Both the position numbers and the translations under genes were made by a program. Under the pieces are notes generated by a model. That model saw only the letters and a list, made by a program, of their open reading frames with translations, was not told where the DNA came from and made no database searches. Of a stretch of DNA of 64,000 nucleotides, positions 47,552 to 63,937 are shown in pieces (the first letter of the stretch is position 1; the number at the start of each line of letters is the position of its first letter). Source of the stretch: Bacilli bacterium (lineage in GTDB: Bacteria > Bacillota_I > Bacilli_A > RF39 > UBA660); the NCBI GenBank assembly GCA_017544165.1, contig JAFYER010000012.1:131538-195537 (forward strand), written 5' to 3'.

Positions 47552-48331
47552 TCATTTAATAAGTTTACGCAACTTACTCAAAGCATTTTTCTCAATCCTT
47601 GACACCTGAGCTTGGGAAATATTTAATTTCCCCGCTATTTCTGATTGAGTCTTACCTATCACAAATCTTTCCATCAAAATATTTCTTTCTCTTATTGATA
47701 TTTTATTAAATGCTCGATGAAGAGAAATCATCATATCTTTATCAGTATTTAATTCTTTTTTATCTGCAATTTGATCCTCGAGATATATTGTGTCCCCTCC
47801 ATCATTAAAGATTGGTTCTGAAACACTCATTGGTTCTTTAAGGGAATCTAAAGCATAACCTACTTCATATTCACTGATTTTTAAGAAGCTTGCTATTTCG
47901 CTAGGACTAGGTTCTCTTCCATGCATATTGATATAGTCCTCTTTAAATTTTAAGATTTGATAAGCTATATCTTTAGTACTTCTTGAAACCCTAATTGGTG
48001 TATTATTATCTCTTAAATATTTTTTGATTTCCCCGACAATAAGGGGAACTCCATAAGTAGAAAGCTTTAAATTATAGGAAATATCAAAATTATCAATTGC
48101 CTTTATAAGGCCTACAACCCCTACTTGGAATAAATCATCTAAGTTGACATTTCTTTTATTAAACCTTTTTAAGATAGATAAAACTAACTTTAAATTACCA
48201 TTAACCAATTTTTCTTTAGCATCTTTATCTCCCTGCTGCATCTTTTTAAATAATTCAATGTTTTGTTTATGCGTAAGCGATTTAATTTCGCTCGTATTAA
48301 GTCCTGTTATATCAACCTTATAATTGCTCAT
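47552..48331 (-). CDS. sigG: RNA polymerase sporulation sigma factor SigG
   Basis: Near-collinear with B. subtilis SigG: KLVNGNLKLVLSILKRFN...DDLFQVGVVGLIKAIDNFD...PIRVSRS..DIAY...SQAQVSRIEK. Confidence 0.85.
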   Translation of the reverse strand: MSNYKVDITGLNTSEIKSLTHKQNIELFKKMQQGDKDAKEKLVNGNLKLVLSILKRFNKRNVNLDDLFQVGVVGLIKAIDNFDISYNLKLSTYGVPLIVGEIKKYLRDNNTPIRVSRSTKDIAYQILKFKEDYINMHGREPSPSEIASFLKISEYEVGYALDSLKEPMSVSEPIFNDGGDTIYLEDQIADKKELNTDKDMMISLHRAFNKISIRERNILMERFVIGKTQSEIAGKLNISQAQVSRIEKNALSKLRKLIK

Positions 48332-48381
48332 AAAAAAATCCTTTCGCTCTTATAGTGAATCAAAAAGGATTTTTCTATTCA

Positions 48382-49062
48382 TTAACCTATTAAAGATTGA
48401 ATATTATTTATTACTTTCTTTTCAATTCTCGATATATATGACTGGCTTATTCCAAGCATCTTAGCTACTTCTTTTTGCGTATATTCCTTAGTATTATAAA
48501 GACCATATCTAAGTGTCATAATTTCTTTATCACGAGAATTAAGATTATTAATTTCCCTATTTAAAAACTCTTTATTTAAGGCATTTTCAAATGTTTTAGG
48601 TACAATATCATCATCCGTTCCTAAGACATCCTCCAGGTGTAGTTCATTTCCTTCGGCATCAAAATTTAGTGATTCCTCAAGGCTTACTTCCGTTTTTTGT
48701 CTTTTATTTTTCCGAATAAACATTAATATTTCATTAGAAATACACCTACTTGCGTATGTTGCAAGTTTAATATTTTTAGATATCTTATAGGTATTAATAC
48801 CCTTGATTAATCCAATTGAACCAATTGATACCAAATCCTCGATGTCGTATCCTGAGGATTCATACTTTTTGGCTAAGAACACAACTAATCTTAGATTATG
48901 TTCAATCAAAATATTTTTAGCCTGCTCATCACCAGATTTGGCTTTAATTAAATATGATAATTCCTCTTCTTTACTAAGAGGAGGTGGAAGTTTATCAGTA
49001 GCCCCGACAAAAAAGACTTCCCGATACTTTTTAAATAGCTTTTCTAATAGTTTTTTAAACAT
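48382..49062 (-). CDS. sigE: RNA polymerase sporulation sigma factor SigE (pro-sigma-E)
   Basis: A pro-sequence is followed by ALPPPLSKEEE...ILIEHNLRLVVFLAKKYE...KLATYASRCISNEILMFIR...GISQSYISRIEKK, which closely parallels B. subtilis SigE. Confidence 0.85.
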   Translation of the reverse strand: MFKKLLEKLFKKYREVFFVGATDKLPPPLSKEEELSYLIKAKSGDEQAKNILIEHNLRLVVFLAKKYESSGYDIEDLVSIGSIGLIKGINTYKISKNIKLATYASRCISNEILMFIRKNKRQKTEVSLEESLNFDAEGNELHLEDVLGTDDDIVPKTFENALNKEFLNREINNLNSRDKEIMTLRYGLYNTKEYTQKEVAKMLGISQSYISRIEKKVINNIQSLIG

Positions 49063-49846
49063 AATTATCCTCCATTAACTTTTTATTTAATAAGCAGTCT
49101 ATTCCATCCTGAAAATGATAATCGCTTACCCCAATTAAATAGTTATATATCTTTTTTTGATTAATAATTATAAAACTTGGTTTATAGCATTTCATTAAAC
49201 TGCTTCCTGATACCGTATGACAAGGAACATAAACCGGCGATCTAATTTTTTCGATTTCAGACATTTTCTTGTTACTTACAATAATAATTGCTTTTTTAGT
49301 TATGGGATCAATAAGATTATTACCATTATCTAAAAGTGATAAACATTTAATGCATTTTTGATTAAAATAGATTTCGATTACATAATATAAGCTATATGTA
49401 TTTTTTAATTTTTTAGAACTCTTATAGTAAATAAAAAGAATTATCGGTGAAAGAATCATTAAAACTATAATATTGGGATTAGTACCCTTAAAAAAGAATA
49501 GTAAACCTTGATGATCAAGTGATGTTTGCAAGTCTATAAAATATAGGAAGCCCGCTAAAACAAAGCTACACATATACAAATATAATAAATTATTTAAAGT
49601 ATACCTTATACTGACATAACCAAAGGAAATTAAACACATAATAATGCTCGTTATAATTTTAAATAAAAATAAAATAATTGAATTAATATTTAAAAAAAGC
49701 AAAAAAATAGAAATAGCTCCAAATAATGATGCAAAAATGTGATATTTAAACTTTCTATTTCTTTTTAAAGTAACACTTACAGTGAGCATCAATAATAAAT
49801 CATAGAAAAAATTCATAAAAAAAATTAGGTCCAAATATATAATCAT
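49055..49846 (-). CDS. spoIIGA: sigma-E processing aspartic peptidase SpoIIGA
   Basis: Polytopic N-terminal membrane domain plus a C-terminal domain with SLLDNGNNLIDPITK (compare the DSGN catalytic motif). It holds the canonical position upstream of sigE. Confidence 0.75.
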   Translation of the reverse strand: MIIYLDLIFFMNFFYDLLLMLTVSVTLKRNRKFKYHIFASLFGAISIFLLFLNINSIILFLFKIITSIIMCLISFGYVSIRYTLNNLLYLYMCSFVLAGFLYFIDLQTSLDHQGLLFFFKGTNPNIIVLMILSPIILFIYYKSSKKLKNTYSLYYVIEIYFNQKCIKCLSLLDNGNNLIDPITKKAIIIVSNKKMSEIEKIRSPVYVPCHTVSGSSLMKCYKPSFIIINQKKIYNYLIGVSDYHFQDGIDCLLNKKLMEDNYV

Positions 49847-53781: not shown

Positions 53782-54204
53782 TTAAAACTCCTTAATCAAG
53801 TAAATTTTAAACAAATTATCAATCCAAGATGCAAATTCCAAAGCAATATCAGAATGTGCAAAAGTGCCATCACTATATCTTCCTTTGCTAGAACGAATTC
53901 CCAATGAATTTACCCTTTTAATCCATTGATTAGGGGTCATAGTAAATGATTTCTTAGGAGCCTCAATTATAATTTGGCGGAATTCCGCCGAATTAAAATT
54001 ATCATTACTTAGTTCCTCCCATAATCCTAAAAACTCTATCGTATCATAATTACTTAACCACTTTTTTATTGCATCTGATGGTTCTTTAGGATTTTTATAT
54101 TTTGCTAAATCAGTTAACGAAATATAATCTTCATTATTAATTCTCATAACTCTAACATCATTATCATTAACATTCATAACTGTCATAATACCATTCATAA
54201 TCAT
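53782..54204 (-). CDS. KilA-N domain protein (phage/plasmid-associated DNA-binding domain)
   Basis: 140 aa with RBS AAAGGA. The ISLTDLAKY...W......EFLG.WE.......GTFAHSDIALEFASWID pattern is typical of KilA-N/APSES-type domains. Confidence 0.6.
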   Translation of the reverse strand: MIMNGIMTVMNVNDNDVRVMRINNEDYISLTDLAKYKNPKEPSDAIKKWLSNYDTIEFLGLWEELSNDNFNSAEFRQIIIEAPKKSFTMTPNQWIKRVNSLGIRSSKGRYSDGTFAHSDIALEFASWIDNLFKIYLIKEF

Positions 54205-57674: not shown

Positions 57675-59669
57675 TTAAACGCCAAAAGAAAATAAGTAAT
57701 AAAAGAACAAAAAGGCTTTTTTGTAAATATTATATTTAACAAGTACAAAACCATCAGTAAAAAATGTTAAAAAATTATATATTATGCCAATAATAACTAA
57801 AAATACCATAGTTTTAAAAATTAACTCTTTATAATTATTACAATTATTATATAAATTCATCCATATTATGACAGAACTTATTGATAGCATAAAACCAAAA
57901 TCGCAAATGTATCTTGGCAATATACCAGCCATTTGAACGTCGGCAATTATAAGGATTATTGAAAAAATAATGGCGCATAAACTAATGTAAAACTCTTCTT
58001 TATGGCTAATATACTTTTTAAATTTGAAAATAAATAAATTAATAATTGTTAACATATTTAAAATAGCAAAACCGCCAATCATTTGCTCATAAATGGTAAT
58101 TCCAATATAATTGCTATCTATATTATAAGCGTGTATAAATGGAAACACTAAATTAACACGGGGAATTTCAAATAAAAAAGCAAATACACCTGAAGCAATT
58201 CGATCAAAATAAAAACCTCTTTTTGTCATATCATTGCTTGTTAAATTAAAATTAACTCCGAAATTAAAAACAGAATGATATCTAACATAATTATAATACA
58301 TTAAAAGGCCCGCTGATATTATCATTGGAATGGCTATTGCTAGTATATTTTTAACTTTAAAAGCCTCTTTGTTTTTTAAATATTTCCAAAAAATAGGTAT
58401 GCCTAGAAAAGCTGCTAAAAATATCTGAGGACGACATCCAGGCACTAAAGCAAGAGCAATACTACCTATCAATAAATCCTTAGTACAAATCTTTTTATCA
58501 TCTCTTGCAGCTTTTAACCAAAATCCTAAACCAAGCATAGCAAATGCAGCTCCAAAGGTTATTGGAATTCCATAAAAGAATCCTTTCCTAATTACCATTG
58601 AAATGCCAGACAAAACTGCTACTGATATAGCACAAACAAAATAATGCTTAAATTTTGCTTTGGGATAAAATCGATTAAATAATTGATATGTTACAAAAAA
58701 GCCTGCTATAACATAGAAAATGCAAGACATAGTAACAGCAAGCGAATTATTTAAATCATGATGAGTGATTAAATAAAACGGAAGATGCATAAATAAACAA
58801 GGTACAATTCCAAAATAAGAATAATATTTGCCATTATAAAATGAATAATCTAGGTAATAATCCTCATTTACTTTTAACTGTCTATCTCTAACAGATACAT
58901 CATAAGGATTTTTTAAAGCTAATAACTTATCAGAAACTTCCAAATCAAGAGTAATCTTTCCCTTAGCAAGAGTTCTTGCCAATACCTGATATTGATAAAA
59001 ATGAGTTATGTGATCAAAATCATATTTATCTTTACCATAATTTGAAAAATTAACAAAAAAATAAATTCCCAAAGAGATTATACCGATACATATTACAATA
59101 AAGGAAAGATATTCTTTATAATTTTTTTCAAATGGTTTAAGTATTTTTATATATGTACATATAAAAGAAATAATAAAAACCATACAAACTCTTATATAAT
59201 TTATTATAATTGGAACTTTAGCATTTAAGGATATGCTTTTAATGTTAGCATCATTAGTTGAACGAATTTTTATCTTAAGGCTATCTAATTTTCCCATTGG
59301 ATGAAGAGAAATATATTTTGTTTGTTTAATGCTATCCACTATTATAACATTACCTGCATCATAAAACTCATCATTGCCCTCATCTTTAAGCATTATCAAT
59401 AACTCGCTTGGGTCTTTCGAAGTACCATTGATATAAATGTTATATACATCTTTTTTAATATCATTTATTTCAATGATTTCCGATTCTTGTATATTAATTT
59501 CAACGTTATTACTAAAATAATAATTTTTATTTATCTCCTTATTAATATCAAATTTTATTGTTTTTGGATAAAATAGTGATTTATAATGCTTAATATTAAA
59601 AACAGTAAATTCTAAACCTACGGCAATTAAAATACTGATTATTATTATCTTTATAATATTTTTATTCAT
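57675..59669 (-). CDS. polytopic integral membrane protein, GT-C-fold glycosyltransferase-like (or polysaccharide polymerase-like)
   Basis: N-terminal TM helix, a ~150-aa extracytoplasmic domain, and then ≥12 TM helices. The first extracytoplasmic loop carries the acidic motif GKDKYDFDH. The start is set at the ATG at 59669. Confidence 0.45.
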   Translation of the reverse strand: MNKNIIKIIIISILIAVGLEFTVFNIKHYKSLFYPKTIKFDINKEINKNYYFSNNVEINIQESEIIEINDIKKDVYNIYINGTSKDPSELLIMLKDEGNDEFYDAGNVIIVDSIKQTKYISLHPMGKLDSLKIKIRSTNDANIKSISLNAKVPIIINYIRVCMVFIISFICTYIKILKPFEKNYKEYLSFIVICIGIISLGIYFFVNFSNYGKDKYDFDHITHFYQYQVLARTLAKGKITLDLEVSDKLLALKNPYDVSVRDRQLKVNEDYYLDYSFYNGKYYSYFGIVPCLFMHLPFYLITHHDLNNSLAVTMSCIFYVIAGFFVTYQLFNRFYPKAKFKHYFVCAISVAVLSGISMVIRKGFFYGIPITFGAAFAMLGLGFWLKAARDDKKICTKDLLIGSIALALVPGCRPQIFLAAFLGIPIFWKYLKNKEAFKVKNILAIAIPMIISAGLLMYYNYVRYHSVFNFGVNFNLTSNDMTKRGFYFDRIASGVFAFLFEIPRVNLVFPFIHAYNIDSNYIGITIYEQMIGGFAILNMLTIINLFIFKFKKYISHKEEFYISLCAIIFSIILIIADVQMAGILPRYICDFGFMLSISSVIIWMNLYNNCNNYKELIFKTMVFLVIIGIIYNFLTFFTDGFVLVKYNIYKKAFLFFYYLFSFGV

Positions 59670-60612
59670 ATTTTGTTTCTCTCTTAATTTTTTTATTAAT
59701 AAAATAGATGAATGGTTTAGCAAGAATTATCGATAATTTCCTATTTTTGCTTCTTCTTTTTTGACGCATATAATAACTTTGTAAAGAATCGTTTCGATAA
59801 CTTAGCAGCTTATTTGAGTCATCACTATCTTTTAAAATGGGACTAGTATAATTTTTCTCACCAAAAACAAGTGTTAAAACATATTTCCAACTTAACCCAT
59901 GATACTTTAAAATGTTTGCACGTAATTCATTGTAAGAACACCGACATGTTTCTCCCCCACCAATGTTAATAATCTTATTGTTTAATTTATTAAATTTATC
60001 TATACATGCACAAAAAGCATATCCAGCATCCTCCTTAGTAATTACTTCAATTTGCTCATTACCCTTGATATTATAAATAAATGGATCTTTACGAAGGTCT
60101 CCTAAAACTAAAGGAACTCTTATTATTATATAATTCTTAACTTTTTTACTTATAATCTTTTCACTAGCAATTTTTGCATTATCAAAATAACGATTATCTC
60201 CTATTCTAAGTTTTTCATGAATATCTGTTATATCTTTACTATATACACTTGTCGAAGAAGCATATATTAATAAACATTTCGGATTATAATAATTAATTGC
60301 TCGAACAATATTTTCTGTGCTTGAATAATCAATTAAATTTACTAACGCTTTTTTATACTCTGCTAAAGGCGGTAAACATGTAGCAAGATGAATCACTATG
60401 TTAGCCTCTTTTATAAGTGGCTCGAGTAAATTGCGATCTAAAACATCGCCATAAATAATATTAATCCGATGACGATAGCGATGTAATCTTTTATAAACAT
60501 TCTTGGTTTTTAAATCTAAAGCAGTAATTTCATATTTACCTTCAGATAATAAGTATTTAATCAAAGATAAGCCAACACTTCCAGCTGCTCCTGTTACTAA
60601 AACTTTTTTCAT
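59662..60612 (-). CDS. NAD-dependent epimerase/dehydratase (SDR, nucleotide-sugar modifying)
   Basis: Rossmann motif VLVTGAAGSVG, the extended-SDR family YxxxK catalytic motif, and a sugar-nucleotide epimerase-like C-terminal region. Confidence 0.7.
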   Translation of the reverse strand: MKKVLVTGAAGSVGLSLIKYLLSEGKYEITALDLKTKNVYKRLHRYRHRINIIYGDVLDRNLLEPLIKEANIVIHLATCLPPLAEYKKALVNLIDYSSTENIVRAINYYNPKCLLIYASSTSVYSKDITDIHEKLRIGDNRYFDNAKIASEKIISKKVKNYIIIRVPLVLGDLRKDPFIYNIKGNEQIEVITKEDAGYAFCACIDKFNKLNNKIINIGGGETCRCSYNELRANILKYHGLSWKYVLTLVFGEKNYTSPILKDSDDSNKLLSYRNDSLQSYYMRQKRRSKNRKLSIILAKPFIYFINKKIKRETKYE

Positions 60613-60651
60613 ATCAATACCTCATATAACAAAATTTTATCACAAAAAAAG

Positions 60652-61278
60652 CTAACATTCTACAACGTTAGCTTCAAAAACTGCTCTATATGCTTTAAAA
60701 TCATTTTGATATTGATAAACATCTTCTAGCCATTTAAATGTTATTTTTGCTTTCCAATAATCGGTTTTAGTAATATTCTTATCAGCTGTTATACTATTTT
60801 TATAAACATTGGAACCATTTTTAATAGGAACCTTTATCACACCAGTTTTAGTAGTAATATCCATGTTAGATATGATACTTTCGTAATTAATTCCATCTTC
60901 AGATTTTATAATGTTTAACACAAGTTCAGGAACTCCTTCTTTTGAATAATGAAACACTTGCTCATCTGGTAAAGTAATTTTAGTTTCATAACAATAAGTT
61001 GCACTTTTATTTGTTGTATCAAGTACAATATTAAAAGTTGCTTCACCAGACACATCATGGCCTTCATAAATTGCAAAATTATTAGAATCAGCTATAAAAC
61101 TTGCATCAGCTTTCTCAAATTTTAATGTATCTACCCCTTTGGAGGTTACATCAATTTGAAATGTGCCATCATATAATTCCCTAGTCGAAAAATAAGCGTA
61201 TGTTCCAACCACAAATAAAAGTGATGCAAATAAAATAGATAATAGTGTCCATATTATTGCTTTATTCTTTCTTGACAT
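60652..61278 (-). CDS. secreted protein with SipW-cognate (TasA/camelysin-type) signal peptide
   Basis: Strong RBS AAGGAGGT. The signal MSRKNKAIIWTLLSILFASLLFVVGTYAYFSTRELYDGTF matches the GGGTFAYFSD signature of the TasA/CalY class. The ~180-aa mature domain has Cys at mid-sequence and at the C-terminus (...ANVVEC). Confidence 0.6.
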   Translation of the reverse strand: MSRKNKAIIWTLLSILFASLLFVVGTYAYFSTRELYDGTFQIDVTSKGVDTLKFEKADASFIADSNNFAIYEGHDVSGEATFNIVLDTTNKSATYCYETKITLPDEQVFHYSKEGVPELVLNIIKSEDGINYESIISNMDITTKTGVIKVPIKNGSNVYKNSITADKNITKTDYWKAKITFKWLEDVYQYQNDFKAYRAVFEANVVEC

Positions 61279-61308
61279 AATACCTCCTTTTTTTTATTTA
61301 TCAATTGT

Positions 61309-63111
61309 CTAACTAATTGTATATGGATTATTCCATGTACCTCTTCCACCTGTTAATGCTGTATCAGCTTTAAGATACAAGACGGGGCGGACCCCAATGT
61401 CAACATTAATATCATCATCACTAATAACGTATTCTTGGCCCAAAGTTCCACCAGATCTCGTTGTAAATACTTCATACGAACTACCAGAATATGGACTAAT
61501 TGTCCATTGATAAGCCCCATATGATCCAGGAGCCGTTGAAGTAATATTTTGAAACAATAACCAATCATTTAACGCACAATCCGTCTTATAACTACCAGTA
61601 CCCCATCCACTCATTTGATATTCTAAACATGTACTTCGATTATAGGTGCTTCCACCATTAGTGGCATAACCATAATCACTTGGATACATTAATCCTATCT
61701 TCCCATACCAATAAACTGCTCTATTTTCTAATAATGACGTATGAGTATATACGGAACCAGAATTACTTATATTTCTTTCTTTATTATATAATGCTGCCGG
61801 ACTTCCTTCAGTCGCTGTTGAATAACTGCTTGTTCCATATAAATTCCAATTTACTGAAGCGACTTTTTCTAATGCACTAGTTCCTATTTTCTTTGGAACT
61901 GTACCTGATGTGTTAGTATAGCTACTTGTCGTAGCACTACTTGGTTTATACACGGTTGTTGTTGAATTTGATTCATTCAAATAATCATATCCAAAGGAAT
62001 AAAACTGTATATTATTTAATCTTGCTTGACCTTGCAAAACACTATAATCACCATGTAAATTTGTATAATTCGCATCATAAGCACTATATAAATAATAAGG
62101 ACCATTTAGCATTAAACTTAGTTGACTATCACTCCATTCATTAGAACCATATGGAGTAATTGAAGAGCCAACTCCCGTTTGCTTATAATCCCATAAAAAA
62201 TTGCCTAAAGAAGCGTTTCTTATAATTTTGACCAAATTGCCTGTAGAGGTGTTATTACATTCGTTAAAATAACCATATGTTCCTGTACAATATGTCATAT
62301 CAGGCATTACACCAATTATCCGCCAAAGTTCTCCATTAAACTGAATATAATTATCAGGATTTTTACCGGCATATCTTAATTCGCCTTCATGATCTGATGT
62401 TAATATCCATGGACTACTTGATACCGCATCAGTTCCACTTCTTGGAGCATTATTTGCAATATAATCAGTTAATAACATTGTATGAGGAGCAGATGAGCAT
62501 GAAACATTTTCAATAGATACTTTGCTTTTATATGAAGCATTATACATTGTTTGATTTAAATCTAGATTATAAAATGACTGAGTAACTGTGTATACTTGGG
62601 TATTTAAAGAACCATGTGAAGAAATTGATCTAGTAGCAATCGTATTACCACTTGTTAACGAATCGATGTTAGTTTCCGCAAAAACAGTGGTGGAATTTTC
62701 ATCGGCGATTGATAAAGTATTTTCTTTTAAACTACCTCGTCCAGTTGTAGGCACATATGTATCTGAATCTGCAAGTTTAGTCCAAACAAAACTGAATGTA
62801 CATGTTATTTCCTCAAGGGGCGTTCCACCGATAAGAGAAACTTCAATTGTCTCATTTGCTGATATAGGCACTGTATTATTAGCTTGAGAAGGAAGCATAT
62901 CAGCATCAGTAACATCTAAAATTAAATCACCACTTGGAACAGCAGTAAAAATAGGAATCATCGATTCATCAATATTAGCGGAAACGTTTATATTACCATT
63001 ACCAACAATGTTTCCACTAAAAAAAGCATATGTAAAGGAAATAACAATTACAATAAGTACTAATAGAGATATAACAATAAAAATAGTATTTTGTTTTCTA
63101 GTGTTAATCAC
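61309..63111 (-). CDS. large secreted S/T/N/Y/G-rich protein with SipW-cognate signal peptide (GTG start)
   Basis: MINTRKQNTIFIVISLLVLIVIVISFTYAFFSGNIVGNGN. The 600-aa sequence is dominated by Ser/Thr/Asn/Tyr/Gly with many N-x-S/T sites. The GTG start has GGTGGAG upstream. Confidence 0.55.
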   Translation of the reverse strand: MINTRKQNTIFIVISLLVLIVIVISFTYAFFSGNIVGNGNINVSANIDESMIPIFTAVPSGDLILDVTDADMLPSQANNTVPISANETIEVSLIGGTPLEEITCTFSFVWTKLADSDTYVPTTGRGSLKENTLSIADENSTTVFAETNIDSLTSGNTIATRSISSHGSLNTQVYTVTQSFYNLDLNQTMYNASYKSKVSIENVSCSSAPHTMLLTDYIANNAPRSGTDAVSSSPWILTSDHEGELRYAGKNPDNYIQFNGELWRIIGVMPDMTYCTGTYGYFNECNNTSTGNLVKIIRNASLGNFLWDYKQTGVGSSITPYGSNEWSDSQLSLMLNGPYYLYSAYDANYTNLHGDYSVLQGQARLNNIQFYSFGYDYLNESNSTTTVYKPSSATTSSYTNTSGTVPKKIGTSALEKVASVNWNLYGTSSYSTATEGSPAALYNKERNISNSGSVYTHTSLLENRAVYWYGKIGLMYPSDYGYATNGGSTYNRSTCLEYQMSGWGTGSYKTDCALNDWLLFQNITSTAPGSYGAYQWTISPYSGSSYEVFTTRSGGTLGQEYVISDDDINVDIGVRPVLYLKADTALTGGRGTWNNPYTIS

Positions 63112-63180
63112 TTTAACTCCACCCTAATATAATAATAACACATTCCTACTAAAACTTTCAATTATTATTTTACCATGCAT

Positions 63181-63210
63181 AAAAAAAGCGACCATAAAAG
63201 GTCGGTTTTT
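63181..63210 (-). terminator. candidate rho-independent terminator after the first TasA-like gene
   Basis: GC-rich 5-bp stem CGACC/GGTCG with a 6-nt loop, followed on the minus strand by TTTTTTTA. Confidence 0.4.
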
Positions 63211-63222
63211 ATTTAAAGATAA

Positions 63223-63852
63223 CTAACATTGAACTTCGTCAACGAAGAATTTAATTTTCCAAGTCTTTCCAGAATTATCATTTTGACTTACATTGAAGTT
63301 ATAAAACTTTGTTTCAATTGTGTACTCTTTAGTTGTTCCACCAGTAGTATGATTATCTGTAATACTATCAGAACCAACTAATTGTGCTGATGTTTCACTA
63401 CTATTAACGATTTGAGTTTCAGCCTTAAAGTTAGCGTTACCAGTAGCAGTTACCTTATATGTAAATTCATTTCCTGTAATACCTGTAGTCTTAGTATATT
63501 CTTCAGTGCCAGTATCCCATTGATATTTAATTTTATAAGTACATGTCAAGCTTTCGGTTGTACCAGCAGTAAATGTTACATTAAAATGACCACTATCATA
63601 TGCAGATGTTGCTGCAAGATTTCCAGCTGAAGTACCATTTGCTTGAACCATATTAGCAGCTGTAACATTCATTTTTATTTCAGCTCCAGTGGAAATAAAT
63701 GAACTACTTGAAGAAGCAGTTGTAGCTGTTAAATTAGCAACATTATTTACATTAGCACTATTTGCGAAATATGCAAATGTAGCTCCTACTACGGCAACTA
63801 ATAAAGTAGCAATAGCAATTACAGTTAATAATAATGTATTCCTCTTTTCCAT
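63223..63852 (-). CDS. secreted TasA/camelysin-like protein with SipW-cognate signal peptide
   Basis: RBS AAAGGAGA 8 nt upstream of the ATG at 63852. MEKRNTLLLTVIAIATLLVAVVGATFAYFANS. The mature domain is a paralogue of 60652..61278, with an internal Cys (LTCTYK) and a C-terminal Cys (FVDEVQC). Confidence 0.6.
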   Translation of the reverse strand: MEKRNTLLLTVIAIATLLVAVVGATFAYFANSANVNNVANLTATTASSSSSFISTGAEIKMNVTAANMVQANGTSAGNLAATSAYDSGHFNVTFTAGTTESLTCTYKIKYQWDTGTEEYTKTTGITGNEFTYKVTATGNANFKAETQIVNSSETSAQLVGSDSITDNHTTGGTTKEYTIETKFYNFNVSQNDNSGKTWKIKFFVDEVQC

Positions 63853-63876
63853 TATTGTTATCTCCTTTCTATTATA

Positions 63877-63937
63877 AATATTAACATATTTAATAACCAT
63901 TAATCAAGTGTTTTTCATAAATAATTAACATATTTAA
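63877..63937. repeat. two direct copies of ATTAACATATTTAA (63880..63893 and 63924..63937) upstream of the TasA-like gene
   Basis: Exact 14-mers 44 bp apart, each preceded by ATAAAT(A), i.e. a ~20-bp imperfect direct repeat. They lie in the promoter/5' UTR region of 63223..63852. Confidence 0.5.

Follow-up and report, generated by a model that had tools for sequence, protein, structure and literature searches.

The segment at 57675-63111 of the window (the whole 64-kb stretch of DNA that was analyzed) carries genes encoded exclusively on the minus strand (Table 1). The first-pass annotation had combined three of them, encoding a 600-aa secreted protein (p600), an epimerase (SDR) and a membrane protein of ~660 aa, into one glycosylation module. 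All three ORFs are real and lie on one strand, and the 8-nt overlap between the SDR gene stop and the membrane gene start is borne out, provided that the latter gene is taken from the ATG at 59669. On the other hand, the SDR gene does not lie immediately downstream of the p600 gene, as had been stated, since the p208 gene, a fifth gene of the fibre type, and a terminator-like hairpin are located between them. This hairpin (12-bp stem, dG -13.8 kcal/mol, z -4.7; 0/200 shuffles fold equally well) would, as a terminator-like element, set the fibre genes apart from the SDR-GT-C gene pair.

Table 1. Genes, putative regulatory sites and protein regions of the locus, in window coordinates
Feature	Position	Strand	Remarks
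664-aa polytopic membrane protein gene	57675..59669	-	ATG start; large GT-C-fold family without a Pfam model
SDR gene ("epimerase"), 316 aa	59662..60612	-	atypical extended SDR, NAD(P)-dependent oxidoreductase
p208 gene, 208 aa	60652..61278	-	SipW-type signal motif GTYAYFS; paralog of the p600 N-domain
p600 gene, 600 aa	61309..63111	-	GTG start; signal/anchor helix, pilin-like domain, DUF6273-like domain
p209 gene	63223..63852	-	paralog with SipW-type signal; ORF runs to 63900 as "p225"
Terminator-like hairpin with U-run	60648..60675	-	over p208 stop codon; SDR start 36 nt further downstream
Terminator-like hairpin 3' of p209	63189..63204	-	precedes the promoter-like site
Promoter-like site	63161..63132	-	between p209 hairpin and p600, upstream of p600
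CBM-like beta-sandwich ectodomain	59220..59564	-	about residues 36-150, between TM1 and TM2; AF2 model, Foldseek
Conserved motif of first large outer loop	58800..58910	-	residues 254-290; family alignment
KDKYDFDH	59010..59033	-	residues 213-220, start of same outer loop; not conserved in family

Fibre-type proteins

The extreme composition ascribed to p600 was confirmed: S (12.3%), T (11.0%), N (8.7%), Y (7.3%) and G (8.2%) constitute 47.5% of this protein, whereas the same residues reach 27.4% in a set of eight housekeeping proteins from the window. Its "many" N-x-S/T sequons are indeed there (17), but shuffles that preserve composition give 11.7 +/- 2.9, so that the excess amounts to no more than about 1.8 SD. 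The AF2 model (pLDDT 83.9) predicts a protein that is folded throughout, with no disordered Ser/Thr-rich linker, and that is comprised of a pilin-like beta-sandwich (residues about 40-210) and a DUF6273-like domain (about 211-600). The top PDB match in the Foldseek search is T. ramosa IgA peptidase (9qa6), whose N-terminal domain is DUF6273; the BFVD matches are DUF6273 phage proteins, and the weak fold matches of the whole model to donor-strand pilins are ascribed to the N-domain. Homologs of p600 carry PF19789 and are present as many scattered paralogs per genome. Based on these models, p600 probably acts at the surface as a binding or adhesin subunit.

The five fibre-type paralogs of the cluster have in common with the TasA/SipW fibre system of Bacillus a signal peptide with a SipW-type end, xT[YF]A[YF]Fx. 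They differ from that system by the presence of two conserved Cys residues, one of them C-terminal in the alignment (e.g., the last residue of p208), by the DUF6273-like domain added in p600, and by the lack of any Peptidase_M73/TasA Pfam match among them; TasA is also not among the top fold matches of p600. The p209 protein (16% Thr, C-terminal Cys) is annotated with the same length of 209 aa in L081/L082. The signal-peptide model TIGR04088 scores 19.0 bits for p208 (cutoff 19) and 15.9 bits, under the cutoff, for p225/p209. Thus, the description of p600 as SipW-cognate is retained only for its xTYAYFx motif, as p600 has no TIGR04088 match and a motif scan revealed no SipW-like peptidase among the ORFs of the 64 kb.

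The 664-aa membrane protein and its family

The AF2 model of the 664-aa protein (pLDDT 89.4, pTM 0.89) contains an N-terminal TM helix, a beta-sandwich ectodomain and about 13-15 TM helices, in agreement with the previously proposed N-terminal extracytoplasmic domain and at least 12 TM helices. In the Foldseek search, PDB matches over the whole protein are limited to ArnT (5f15, E 1.2e-3, TMt 0.44; also 5ezm) and EmbA/EmbB, all of them marginal (identity 9-11%, TM-score 0.34-0.44, E about 1e-3). A transporter-like model, named at the outset as an outcome against the GT-C likeness, did not emerge from this search, where the best-ranked transporter appears at rank 46 (prob 0.3). At the sequence level, the 664-aa protein has no match in Pfam and none in a profile search of PDB sequences, none of the 46 family members matches a Pfam GT-C family, and the suggested kinship with YfhO was not upheld by hhalign, which found no relation to the family. 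The NCBIfam model of the putative glycosyltransferase LA_3751/LA_3752 matches the 664-aa protein weakly (1.3e-4) and 15 of 46 family members (best 4.3e-10), while Pfam DUF6541 is matched by 5/46 and the WsfD model by 1/46 (8e-4, far under cutoff). The protein has more than 800 homologs, none of which is named, and the family comprises 6276 representatives at 50% clustering. Overall, the 664-aa protein is very probably a member of a large unnamed family of GT-C-fold glycosyltransferases that use lipid-linked sugars to decorate cell-surface polymers; this family is uncharacterised and has no Pfam model.

Invariant acidic and basic residues of the family map to the first large outer loop with the consensus NPYD-x3-R-...-D-x-[SA]-[FY]-x-x-K-[YF]-Y-x-YFG-[IV]-x-P. 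Judging by their conservation (N254 45/46, P255 46/46, Y256 46/46, D257 44/46, R261 45/46, D274 46/46), D257, R261 and D274 are candidate catalytic or phosphate-binding residues. The acidic D-x-D-like motif KDKYDFDH, highlighted in the first-pass annotation, is present in the same loop (59033..59010; local pLDDT 69), but it is not conserved among the 46 family members: D is found at 217 in 8/46 and at 219 in 6/46, and is outside the five commonest residues in the column of D214. It is therefore not supported as a catalytic motif, the conserved element being NPYD-x3-R...D. Two further invariant residues, D96 and N149, belong to the ectodomain (beta strands within residues 38-148), which matches CBM6/CBM29/CBM35 in the Foldseek search (prob about 1.0, TMt 0.4-0.5). 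This modeled beta-sandwich resembles a CBM, which does not by itself establish glycan binding.

Gene neighborhoods of the family were analyzed in 78 related loci from other species. A GT2 gene is adjacent in 23/138 cases vs. 8/451 among genes at least 5 genes off (odds ratio 11, p=1e-9), and the 133 immediate neighbors include 24 Glycos_transf_2, 3 YfhO and 2 PMT_2 proteins; PF01370 is not among their 25 commonest families. The C-terminal TM hairpin typical of GtrB/CsbB-type enzymes is present in 36/39 neighboring GT2 proteins, and GtrA (PF04138) is encoded in 5 of the loci, e.g., in the order gtrB-GT-C-gtrA in Ventrimonas faecis (L034) or GT-C-gtrB-gtrA (L036). Thus, the GT-C family is linked to GtrB and GtrA at the family level, and 59% of its loci have no GT2 gene nearby. 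This linkage across Firmicutes and the ArnT/EmbA/B fold matches sustain the GT-C likeness proposed earlier. One locus (L020) belongs to a cluster of the wall-polysaccharide type that has MnaA-, TagA- and UbiA-like genes, as read off their N-terminal sequences rather than from a family search, and more GT2/GT4 genes. Of ~25 "Bacilli" loci, 5 (L001, L003, L007, L016, L020) encode fibre-type or DUF6273-like secreted proteins no more than 10 kb away from the GT-C gene, which may be a slight excess over chance. For the membrane gene, the findings largely correspond to an outcome that the original proposal had counted against itself, namely conservation of the gene pair elsewhere only in polysaccharide contexts that are unrelated. 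Neither gtrB nor gtrA was found in the 64-kb window, so that the donor pathway of this organism is not visible there.

The SDR gene and its neighborhoods

The designation of the SDR as an NAD-dependent nucleotide-sugar epimerase holds in part. It matches Pfam Epimerase (1.9e-20) and carries GAAGSVG, but it is atypical: no NCBIfam equivalog matches it at its cutoff, its nearest PDB relatives, sugar-nucleotide epimerases (1.7e-9), cover the N-terminal 125 residues only, and its catalytic Tyr is displaced (Y142-x4-K147 with F143, not the canonical YxxxK). The C-terminal tail of the SDR family is conserved and basic/amphipathic.

Adjacency of the SDR and GT-C genes is found only in relatives with at least 68% identity. 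In five contexts outside the lineage of the window, no GT-C gene is adjacent to the SDR gene, which is preceded by a Zip gene in four (the fifth has an unannotated gene of 241 aa) and followed by a patatin-like lipase gene in four. This Zip-SDR-patatin unit, whole or partial, is observed in L086, L087, L092, L093, L001 and L091. In the L001 genome, the SDR is 66% and the GT-C protein 47% identical to those of the window, and the GT-C gene is flanked by rplT and ftsA, whereas L086 and L091 keep the fibre cluster without a GT-C gene at that place. Thus, the position of the GT-C gene beside the SDR and p600 genes is a recent gene order of one lineage and not a conserved protein-glycosylation module. 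Probably, the GT-C gene came to lie in this lineage between the conserved SDR gene, whose ancestral neighbors would be the Zip transporter and patatin-like lipase genes, and dnaB, and would now be co-transcribed with the SDR gene.

Proposed donor and acceptor, and alternative readings

Overall, the interpretation that we favor as reasonably probable is that the 664-aa protein is an ArnT/Emb-like "GT-C_A" transferase of a single Und-P-linked sugar to an envelope glycopolymer, its gene position being lineage-specific and the fibre locus separate. A GtrB/CsbB-type GT2 encoded outside the window would make Und-P-sugar at the cytoplasmic face, and a GtrA-type flippase would take it across the membrane. 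The outer-face NPYD...R...D loop would then provide catalysis and phosphate binding, while the N-terminal CBM-like beta-sandwich would hold the glycan acceptor (e.g., a teichoic-acid-like polymer or secondary wall polysaccharide). That the acceptor would be a glycan and not a protein is suggested by the CBM-like ectodomain and by the contexts of other loci. The fibre/adhesin locus of five proteins has promoter-like and terminator-like sites of its own, and its products would not be dedicated substrates of the GT-C enzyme.

The originally proposed module, in which the SDR and GT-C would be dedicated to extracellular O- or N-glycosylation of p600 and the remaining SipW-type fibre proteins, is quite unlikely, even though the genes are contiguous on the same strand in the lineage of the window, S/T/N/Y make up a very large share of p600 and its paralogs, and fibre-type genes are near the GT-C gene in the five loci listed above. 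Precedents are also available, as Firmicute surface proteins are O-glycosylated in their Ser/Thr-rich regions by GT-C enzymes that partner with GtrB (PMC11092751) and WsfD decorates an S-layer protein glycan (PMC2943079). However, the known O-glycosylated regions are Ser/Thr-rich disordered linkers (PMC11092751), in contrast to the predicted fold of p600 and its modest sequon excess; p600-like genes are multi-copy and scattered; and the GT-C family is common in lineages whose analyzed loci have no such fibre genes within 10 kb. Together with the loss of adjacency, the strong hairpin upstream of the SDR gene and the CBM-like ectodomain, this leaves glycosylation of the fibre proteins unsupported. 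A two-gene unit, in which a membrane-associated SDR would epimerise or reduce a lipid-linked donor for transfer by the GT-C to a target not necessarily among the fibre proteins, is unlikely as well. The gene overlaps (8 nt in the window, 20 nt in L084, 4 nt in L088) imply translational coupling, the basic SDR tail could contact the membrane, ORF13 and DprE2 act on lipid-linked sugar in this way, and an UndP-Ribf epimerase of the SDR type feeds the CBM-bearing GT-C of the GT136 system (PMC11127046). Against this reading are the higher conservation of the SDR relative to the GT-C protein, its Zip and patatin neighbors elsewhere, the absence of PF01370 from the 25 commonest neighbor families, the displaced Tyr and the lack of a GtrB-type synthase in the window. 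It is very unlikely that the membrane protein is no glycosyltransferase at all but a Wzy/WaaL-type polymerase or ligase, a transporter or an ectodomain scaffold: significant sequence matches to characterised enzymes are lacking, the fold matches are marginal and one of 46 members weakly matches Wzy_C (2e-3), yet all top full-length fold matches are GT-C_A enzymes, transporters score far lower, the family is enriched beside GtrB-type GT2 and GtrA, and its conserved polar residues, like those of GT-C enzymes, are concentrated in extracytoplasmic loops.

Among known systems, the favored ArnT/Emb-like transferase is comparable to GtrC-type enzymes and to the multi-component GT-C systems (GtlB, CsdB/D/F, GacL, YfhO with CsbB/GtrB and GtcA/GtrA) of Firmicute teichoic acids and wall polysaccharides, which are likewise recognized through their structural similarity to ArnT, AftD and STT3 (PMC8035078). 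The likeness includes the polytopic GT-C-like fold, conserved acidic residues of the outer loop, envelope-glycan contexts and the GtrB-type and, in several loci, GtrA partners, whereas the 664-aa protein differs in showing no relation to YfhO or any Pfam GT-C family at the sequence or profile level and in its additional N-terminal TM helix and ectodomain. In the branch-glucosylation system of the S-layer glycan in Paenibacillus alvei, the GT2 WsfH is proposed to charge the lipid carrier that serves as the glucose source of WsfD, whose model weakly matches the one family member (PMC2943079); no slg-type cluster or O-oligosaccharyltransferase is evident in the examined part of the window. The three-component pentofuranose system of GT136 is similar in architecture, combining an auxiliary cytoplasmic SDR epimerase gene with a GT-C enzyme whose CBM binds the glycan acceptor (PMC11127046), although the SDR analyzed here belongs elsewhere to the Zip-SDR-patatin unit. 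The best structural matches, ArnT (GT83) and EmbA/B/C (GT53), differ from the 664-aa protein in its NPYD...R...D loop motif and in the N-terminal placement of its CBM-like domain between TM1 and TM2; Emb proteins also bear CBM-like extracytoplasmic domains.

Fold and conserved loop of the membrane protein family

The useful result of this analysis is about the family of the 664-aa polytopic membrane protein (GT-C protein), and less about the window locus. This family is large, widespread, uncharacterised, unnamed and without a Pfam model: more than 800 homologs were retrieved from a 90%-clustered database (none named, none with Pfam domains), a profile search retrieved 6276 representatives after clustering at 50% identity, of which 3080 fell below 1e-30, and no published description was found in the literature. 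The family is encoded by at least 590 GTDB species genomes, with carriers including uncultured Bacilli, Lachnospiraceae, Oscillospiraceae, Acutalibacteraceae, Erysipelotrichaceae and Coriobacteriia.

A confident AlphaFold model from 46 sequences (pLDDT 89.4, pTM 0.89) starts with one N-terminal TM helix, continues with a beta-sandwich ectodomain (approximately residues 36-150) and a pair of TM helices, and leads through a large outer loop (209-287) containing short helices into about ten further TM helices. The model thus contains approximately 13-15 TM helices and a second outer loop at 465-538, in agreement with hydropathy, and the at least 12 TM helices and N-terminal extracytoplasmic domain described by the first-pass annotation are both seen in it. 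The sole full-length PDB matches detected by Foldseek were ArnT (5f15, 5ezm) and EmbA/EmbB (probability 1.00), at marginal scores (E between 1.2e-3 and 7e-3; TMt at most 0.44, and 0.42-0.44 for ArnT), while the ectodomain matched CBM6/29/35 modules from the PDB. Marginal as they are, the fold scores of the predicted structure all agree in direction, pointing to GT-C; the earlier GT-C reading is supported by fold and family context, except for the motif on which it had drawn. GT-C enzymes of Firmicute wall-polymer glycosylation have likewise been recognised via structural homology (PMC8035078).

Pfam assigned the membrane protein no family. NCBIfam NF047440 (LA_3751/LA_3752 putative glycosyltransferase) scored 20.9 bits (1.3e-4) vs. 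a curated cutoff of 200 bits and was weakly matched by 15 of the 46 members scanned singly (best 4.3e-10), so that, judged by sequence, the protein is a distant relative of NF047440 rather than a member. The WsfD model was matched by one of the 46 members (8e-4) and Pfam DUF6541 by five. Several candidate identities were rejected: YfhO (PF09586; no Pfam match in 46 members, and a probability of 0.5% by hhalign vs. five YfhO sequences); PMT_2/ArnT-like enzymes (PF13231, GT39/GT83), for which no member matched by profile at E<=1 and the likeness is in fold only; STT3/AglB/PglB oligosaccharyltransferases (no WWD, with three Trp in all, no STT3 Pfam match, and no STT3 structure in the top 50 fold matches); Wzy/WaaL-type polymerases (a weak match in only 1/46); and transporters, whose fold matches reached a probability of 0.3 at most, the top one at rank 46. 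Searching PDB sequences with a profile of the 46-sequence alignment returned spurious RGS4 matches only. Some members are longer: P0375, P0385 and P0440 (1064-1450 aa) have N-terminal extensions of 390-780 aa, in which a Pfam scan seeking a Rosetta-stone fusion to GT2 found no domains, and extensions of approximately 90-100 aa are frequent in a 750-790-aa subgroup.

The catalytic Asp of GT-C enzymes often lies at the start of the large outer loop. The stretch KDKYDFDH opens this loop in the window protein and had been noted as an acidic D-x-D-like motif, but its aspartates are not conserved across the 46 family members (position 217 is Asp in 8/46 and position 219 in 6/46, and at position 214 Asp is missing from the most frequent residues); pLDDT around the stretch is 69. 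The same loop contains a conserved signature, NPYD-x3-R-…-D-x-[SA]-[FY]-x-x-K-[YF]-Y-x-YFG-[IV]-x-P, in which N254, P255, Y256, D257, R261 and D274 are invariant or almost so (D257 in 44/46, D274 in 46/46). Other invariant residues are R413-P-Q, Y459-N, R463, R484, R490 and D590. We infer that D257 or D274, together with the arginines, are candidate catalytic and phosphate-binding residues. The family combines an unusual N-terminal CBM-like ectodomain with the defined loop motif NPYD-x3-R…D; its assignment to the GT-C glycosyltransferases offers annotators a family name and experimenters residues to mutate.

Features of the region, in window positions
Feature	Position	Strand	Description
p209 (longer ORF, p225)	63852/63900..63223	-	Secreted fibre-type protein; first in transcription order
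p600	63111..61309	-	Secreted fibre-type protein; second, after p209/p225
p208	61278..60652	-	Same fibre-type family; between p600 and SDR gene
Terminator-like hairpin and U-run	60675..60648	-	dG -13.8 kcal/mol, z -4.7; overlaps p208 stop codon
SDR ('epimerase')	60612..59662	-	After p208
GT-C membrane protein	59669..57675	-	664 aa, from ATG; after SDR gene
KDKYDFDH	59033..59010		Residues 213-220 of GT-C protein
Conserved loop signature	58910..58800		Residues 254-290 of GT-C protein
KilA-N domain gene	53782..54204	-	Between recA and infC
L20 gene	52291..52833	-	180 aa
SpoIIGA (Peptidase_U4) gene and two sigma-factor genes	47552..49846	-	Downstream of ftsZ

Family neighbourhoods and a proposed mechanism

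Neighbour genes of the family were clustered and then annotated in 78 usable loci from other species, and GT2 glycosyltransferases emerged as the sole widespread association. Pfam detected Glycos_transf_2 in 24 of 133 immediate neighbours, and an HMM of the GT2 cluster matched 23/138 adjacent genes vs. 8/451 genes at least five positions off (odds ratio 11, p 1e-9). Of 39 neighbouring GT2 proteins, 36 carry the C-terminal TM hairpin that characterises polyprenyl-phosphate sugar synthases of the GtrB/CsbB/DPM1 type, and six small neighbours in five loci belong to the GtrA family (PF04138, 3e-18 to 2e-25). The cultured Ventrimonas faecis shows the canonical arrangement, gtrB-[family]-gtrA, and another locus (L036) shows [family]-gtrB-gtrA. 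Further neighbours include YfhO, PMT_2, GT4 and MurT/GatD. PF01370 (Epimerase) falls outside the 25 commonest families of immediate neighbours.

With these GtrB-type GT2 and GtrA neighbours, the family takes the place of GtrC in three-component systems for extracytoplasmic glycosylation, and we consider it, with fair confidence, the outer-face GT-C component of GtrA/GtrB-type systems in gut Firmicutes. The CBM-like ectodomain of the model suggests a glycan as acceptor; the GT-C enzyme of the GT136 system binds unmodified polysaccharide through its CBM (PMC11127046). The leading and most likely mechanism is sugar transfer from an undecaprenyl-phosphate (Und-P) donor to a wall glycopolymer: a GtrB-type enzyme encoded elsewhere would make the Und-P-linked sugar donor, the CBM-like ectodomain would hold the wall glycopolymer acceptor, and the GT-C enzyme would move the sugar from the one to the other. 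A tblastn search of the 64-kb window with GtrB-type GT2 and GtrA sequences found neither.

Two loci deserve separate mention. An uncultured Bacilli MAG (L020:6350-19811) has its family gene inside a large envelope-glycan cluster with two GtrA genes (confirmed by Pfam), an adjacent GtrB-type GT2 (confirmed by the HMM of the GT2 cluster) and an embedded DUF6273-like protein; read from their N-terminal sequences, other genes give this cluster a wall-polysaccharide-type character, as they resemble MnaA, TagA and GT4 genes, along with another GT2, an acyltransferase and a UbiA-like prenyltransferase. A 54%-identical relative (L090:3100-4563) has, directly 3' of the family gene, a gene for a DUF6020 membrane protein (2e-41), DUF6020 being another uncharacterised polytopic family.

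The secreted fibre-type proteins

The richness of p600 in Ser, Thr, Asn, Tyr and Gly, noted previously, is borne out (47.5% vs. 27.4% in the housekeeping proteins of the window). Its many N-x-S/T sites are there as well (17 sequons), although this count is just approximately 1.8 SD over the 11.7 +/- 2.9 given by its own composition. This composition characterises the fold family and is no evidence of glycosylation. In streptococci, GtrB and a GT-C enzyme glucosylate Ser/Thr-rich disordered segments (PMC11092751); the p600 model is folded from end to end (pLDDT 83.9), with no Ser/Thr-rich disordered segment.

The full fibre cluster, seen at L082:3930-9018 (a locus carrying the genes of the window), comprises five paralogs, p373, p224, p209, p600 and p208. 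Each has a hydrophobic N-terminal segment that runs up to xT[YF]A[YF]Fx, carries a beta domain of approximately 170 aa and contains a pair of conserved Cys. The one Cys is the last residue of p224, p209 and p208, whereas its position in p600 (C205) is internal; p373, the first paralog, has CarboxypepD_reg-like repeats as well. The conservation of both Cys among the five paralogs suggests that their domain is a pilin-like module locked by a disulfide, with no detectable relation to TasA. The SipW-type motif is visibly common to all five, while TIGR04088 (threshold 19 bits) scored 19.0 for p208 and 15.9 for p225 and did not match p600. A motif scan of the window for a SipW-like peptidase gave a lone, spurious pattern match, RecA.

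In addition to the paralog domain, p600 has a C-terminal domain of approximately 390 aa. Among PDB folds, p600 best matches the IgA peptidase of Thomasclavelia ramosa (E 1.8e-5), in which the N-terminal domain is DUF6273, and its BFVD matches are DUF6273 phage proteins (probability 1.00). The protein itself is under the Pfam threshold for DUF6273 and its 53%-identity homologs carry PF19789, so that fold and homologs both assign the C-terminal part to DUF6273. Six or more p600-type paralogs occur in single MAGs. The TasA-like identity proposed for the fibre genes was undetectable by profile or fold: TasA/camelysin (Peptidase_M73) gave no Pfam match at E<=0.1, and TasA was absent from the top 50 PDB fold matches of p600, where the related folds were generic pilin-like beta-sandwiches only. 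Given the DUF6273-like domain and no detectable TasA relation, p600, as modelled, resembles a binding subunit of the fibre tip or the cell surface.

Gene order, the SDR and the question of a glycosylation module

All genes of the region lie on the minus strand. The 8-nt overlap between the SDR and membrane-protein genes was confirmed; the SDR gene is not directly downstream of p600, as had been stated, since p208 and a terminator-like hairpin, both previously missed, intervene. This hairpin overlaps the p208 stop codon; a second terminator-like hairpin lies 3' of p209, and a promoter-like site 5' of p600. The SDR and membrane-protein genes therefore look like a bicistronic unit of their own.

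Loci with the exact protein, or with its relatives of 96%, 78% and 68% identity, keep the order p208-SDR-GT-C-dnaB, which breaks up in more distant relatives. The 47% relative (L001) has two fibre-type genes, Zip, SDR, patatin, greA, dnaB, dnaI, recA, infC, rpmI, rplT, GT-C and ftsA, in this order, and in the 54% and 50% relatives other genes flank the GT-C gene. With an SDR 69% identical, L086 has the same fibre cluster followed by Zip-SDR-patatin-greA-dnaB, without a GT-C gene; L091 resembles it, without patatin. Three loci with SDRs 52-55% identical (L087, L092, L093) show SDR-patatin in unrelated contexts, the two genes overlapping by 4 nt in L087, and the gene upstream of the SDR being Zip in L092 and an unannotated 241-aa gene in L093. 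SDR-patatin is thus found in all five of L086, L087, L092, L093 and L001, with Zip in three; in whole or in part, the Zip-SDR-patatin unit turns up repeatedly among related MAGs (Bacilli and Mollicutes-like). A 679-aa gene near the SDR in L093 was checked and is not a GT-C family member. From these gene orders, the usual neighbours of the SDR are a patatin-like lipase and Zip, and relative to these two the GT-C gene has shifted position.

The 316-aa SDR had been called a nucleotide-sugar epimerase/dehydratase. It has GAAGSVG for the cofactor motif TGxxGxxG, and S119 as the candidate catalytic Ser/Thr. The canonical YxxxK Tyr is F143, with Y142-x4-K147 instead, solved sugar-nucleotide epimerases match the Rossmann half only (1.7e-9), and no NCBIfam equivalog came near its cutoff. 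The SDR is thus atypical, and the Zip/patatin unit, the displaced catalytic Tyr and the basic/amphipathic C-terminal tail conserved in its family suggest that it acts on membrane lipids rather than on nucleotide sugars.

A three-gene module glycosylating p600 and the fibre proteins outside the cell, as the first-pass annotation had envisaged, finds no support in synteny, in the terminator-like signals or in the predicted structure of its proposed substrate, and we regard it as unlikely. HMMs of the paralog N-domain and of the DUF6273-like domain, run on 80 genome loci, gave matches close to the GT-C gene: fibre-type N-domains in L001, L007 and L016, and DUF6273-like proteins in L003, L016 and L020. 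These five of approximately 25 'Bacilli' loci lend the idea weak support; both families are multi-copy in such loci, and L001 is not independent of the window. A newly assembled SDR-GT-C bicistron, in which a membrane-associated SDR would remodel an Und-P-sugar and the CBM-bearing GT-C protein would glycosylate the Ser/Thr/Tyr-rich SipW-type fibre/adhesin proteins encoded upstream, seems to us highly improbable. If true, this unit would provide the first example of a glycosylated TasA-like/DUF6273 fibre system, and a first function for a family of more than 6000 clusters without a Pfam model. A fibre-glycosylation module would be new biology, to which comparative genomics gives no support, and transfer to a wall glycopolymer is the mechanism that we favor.

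Downstream of the GT-C gene follow, in order, dnaB-like, dnaI, recA, infC, rpmI, rplT, ftsA and ftsZ. At its C-terminus the L20 protein is extended by a KE-rich segment that closes with a Rho_N/SAP-like domain, an unusual fusion for L20; PF07498 is recorded for the identical L20 gene in L081/L084 and was found at 3.1e-10 in L001. The KilA-N domain gene is missing from its place in 78%-identical relatives (L084/L085) and encodes 283 aa in L088, so that it is a small variable insertion in a housekeeping stretch. The annotations of SpoIIGA and the two sigma-factor genes after it were taken from matching genes of L081, with sigE/sigG assigned by position; because of these genes, the source organism, a low-GC (approximately 29%) uncultured member of the Bacilli, is probably an endospore former.
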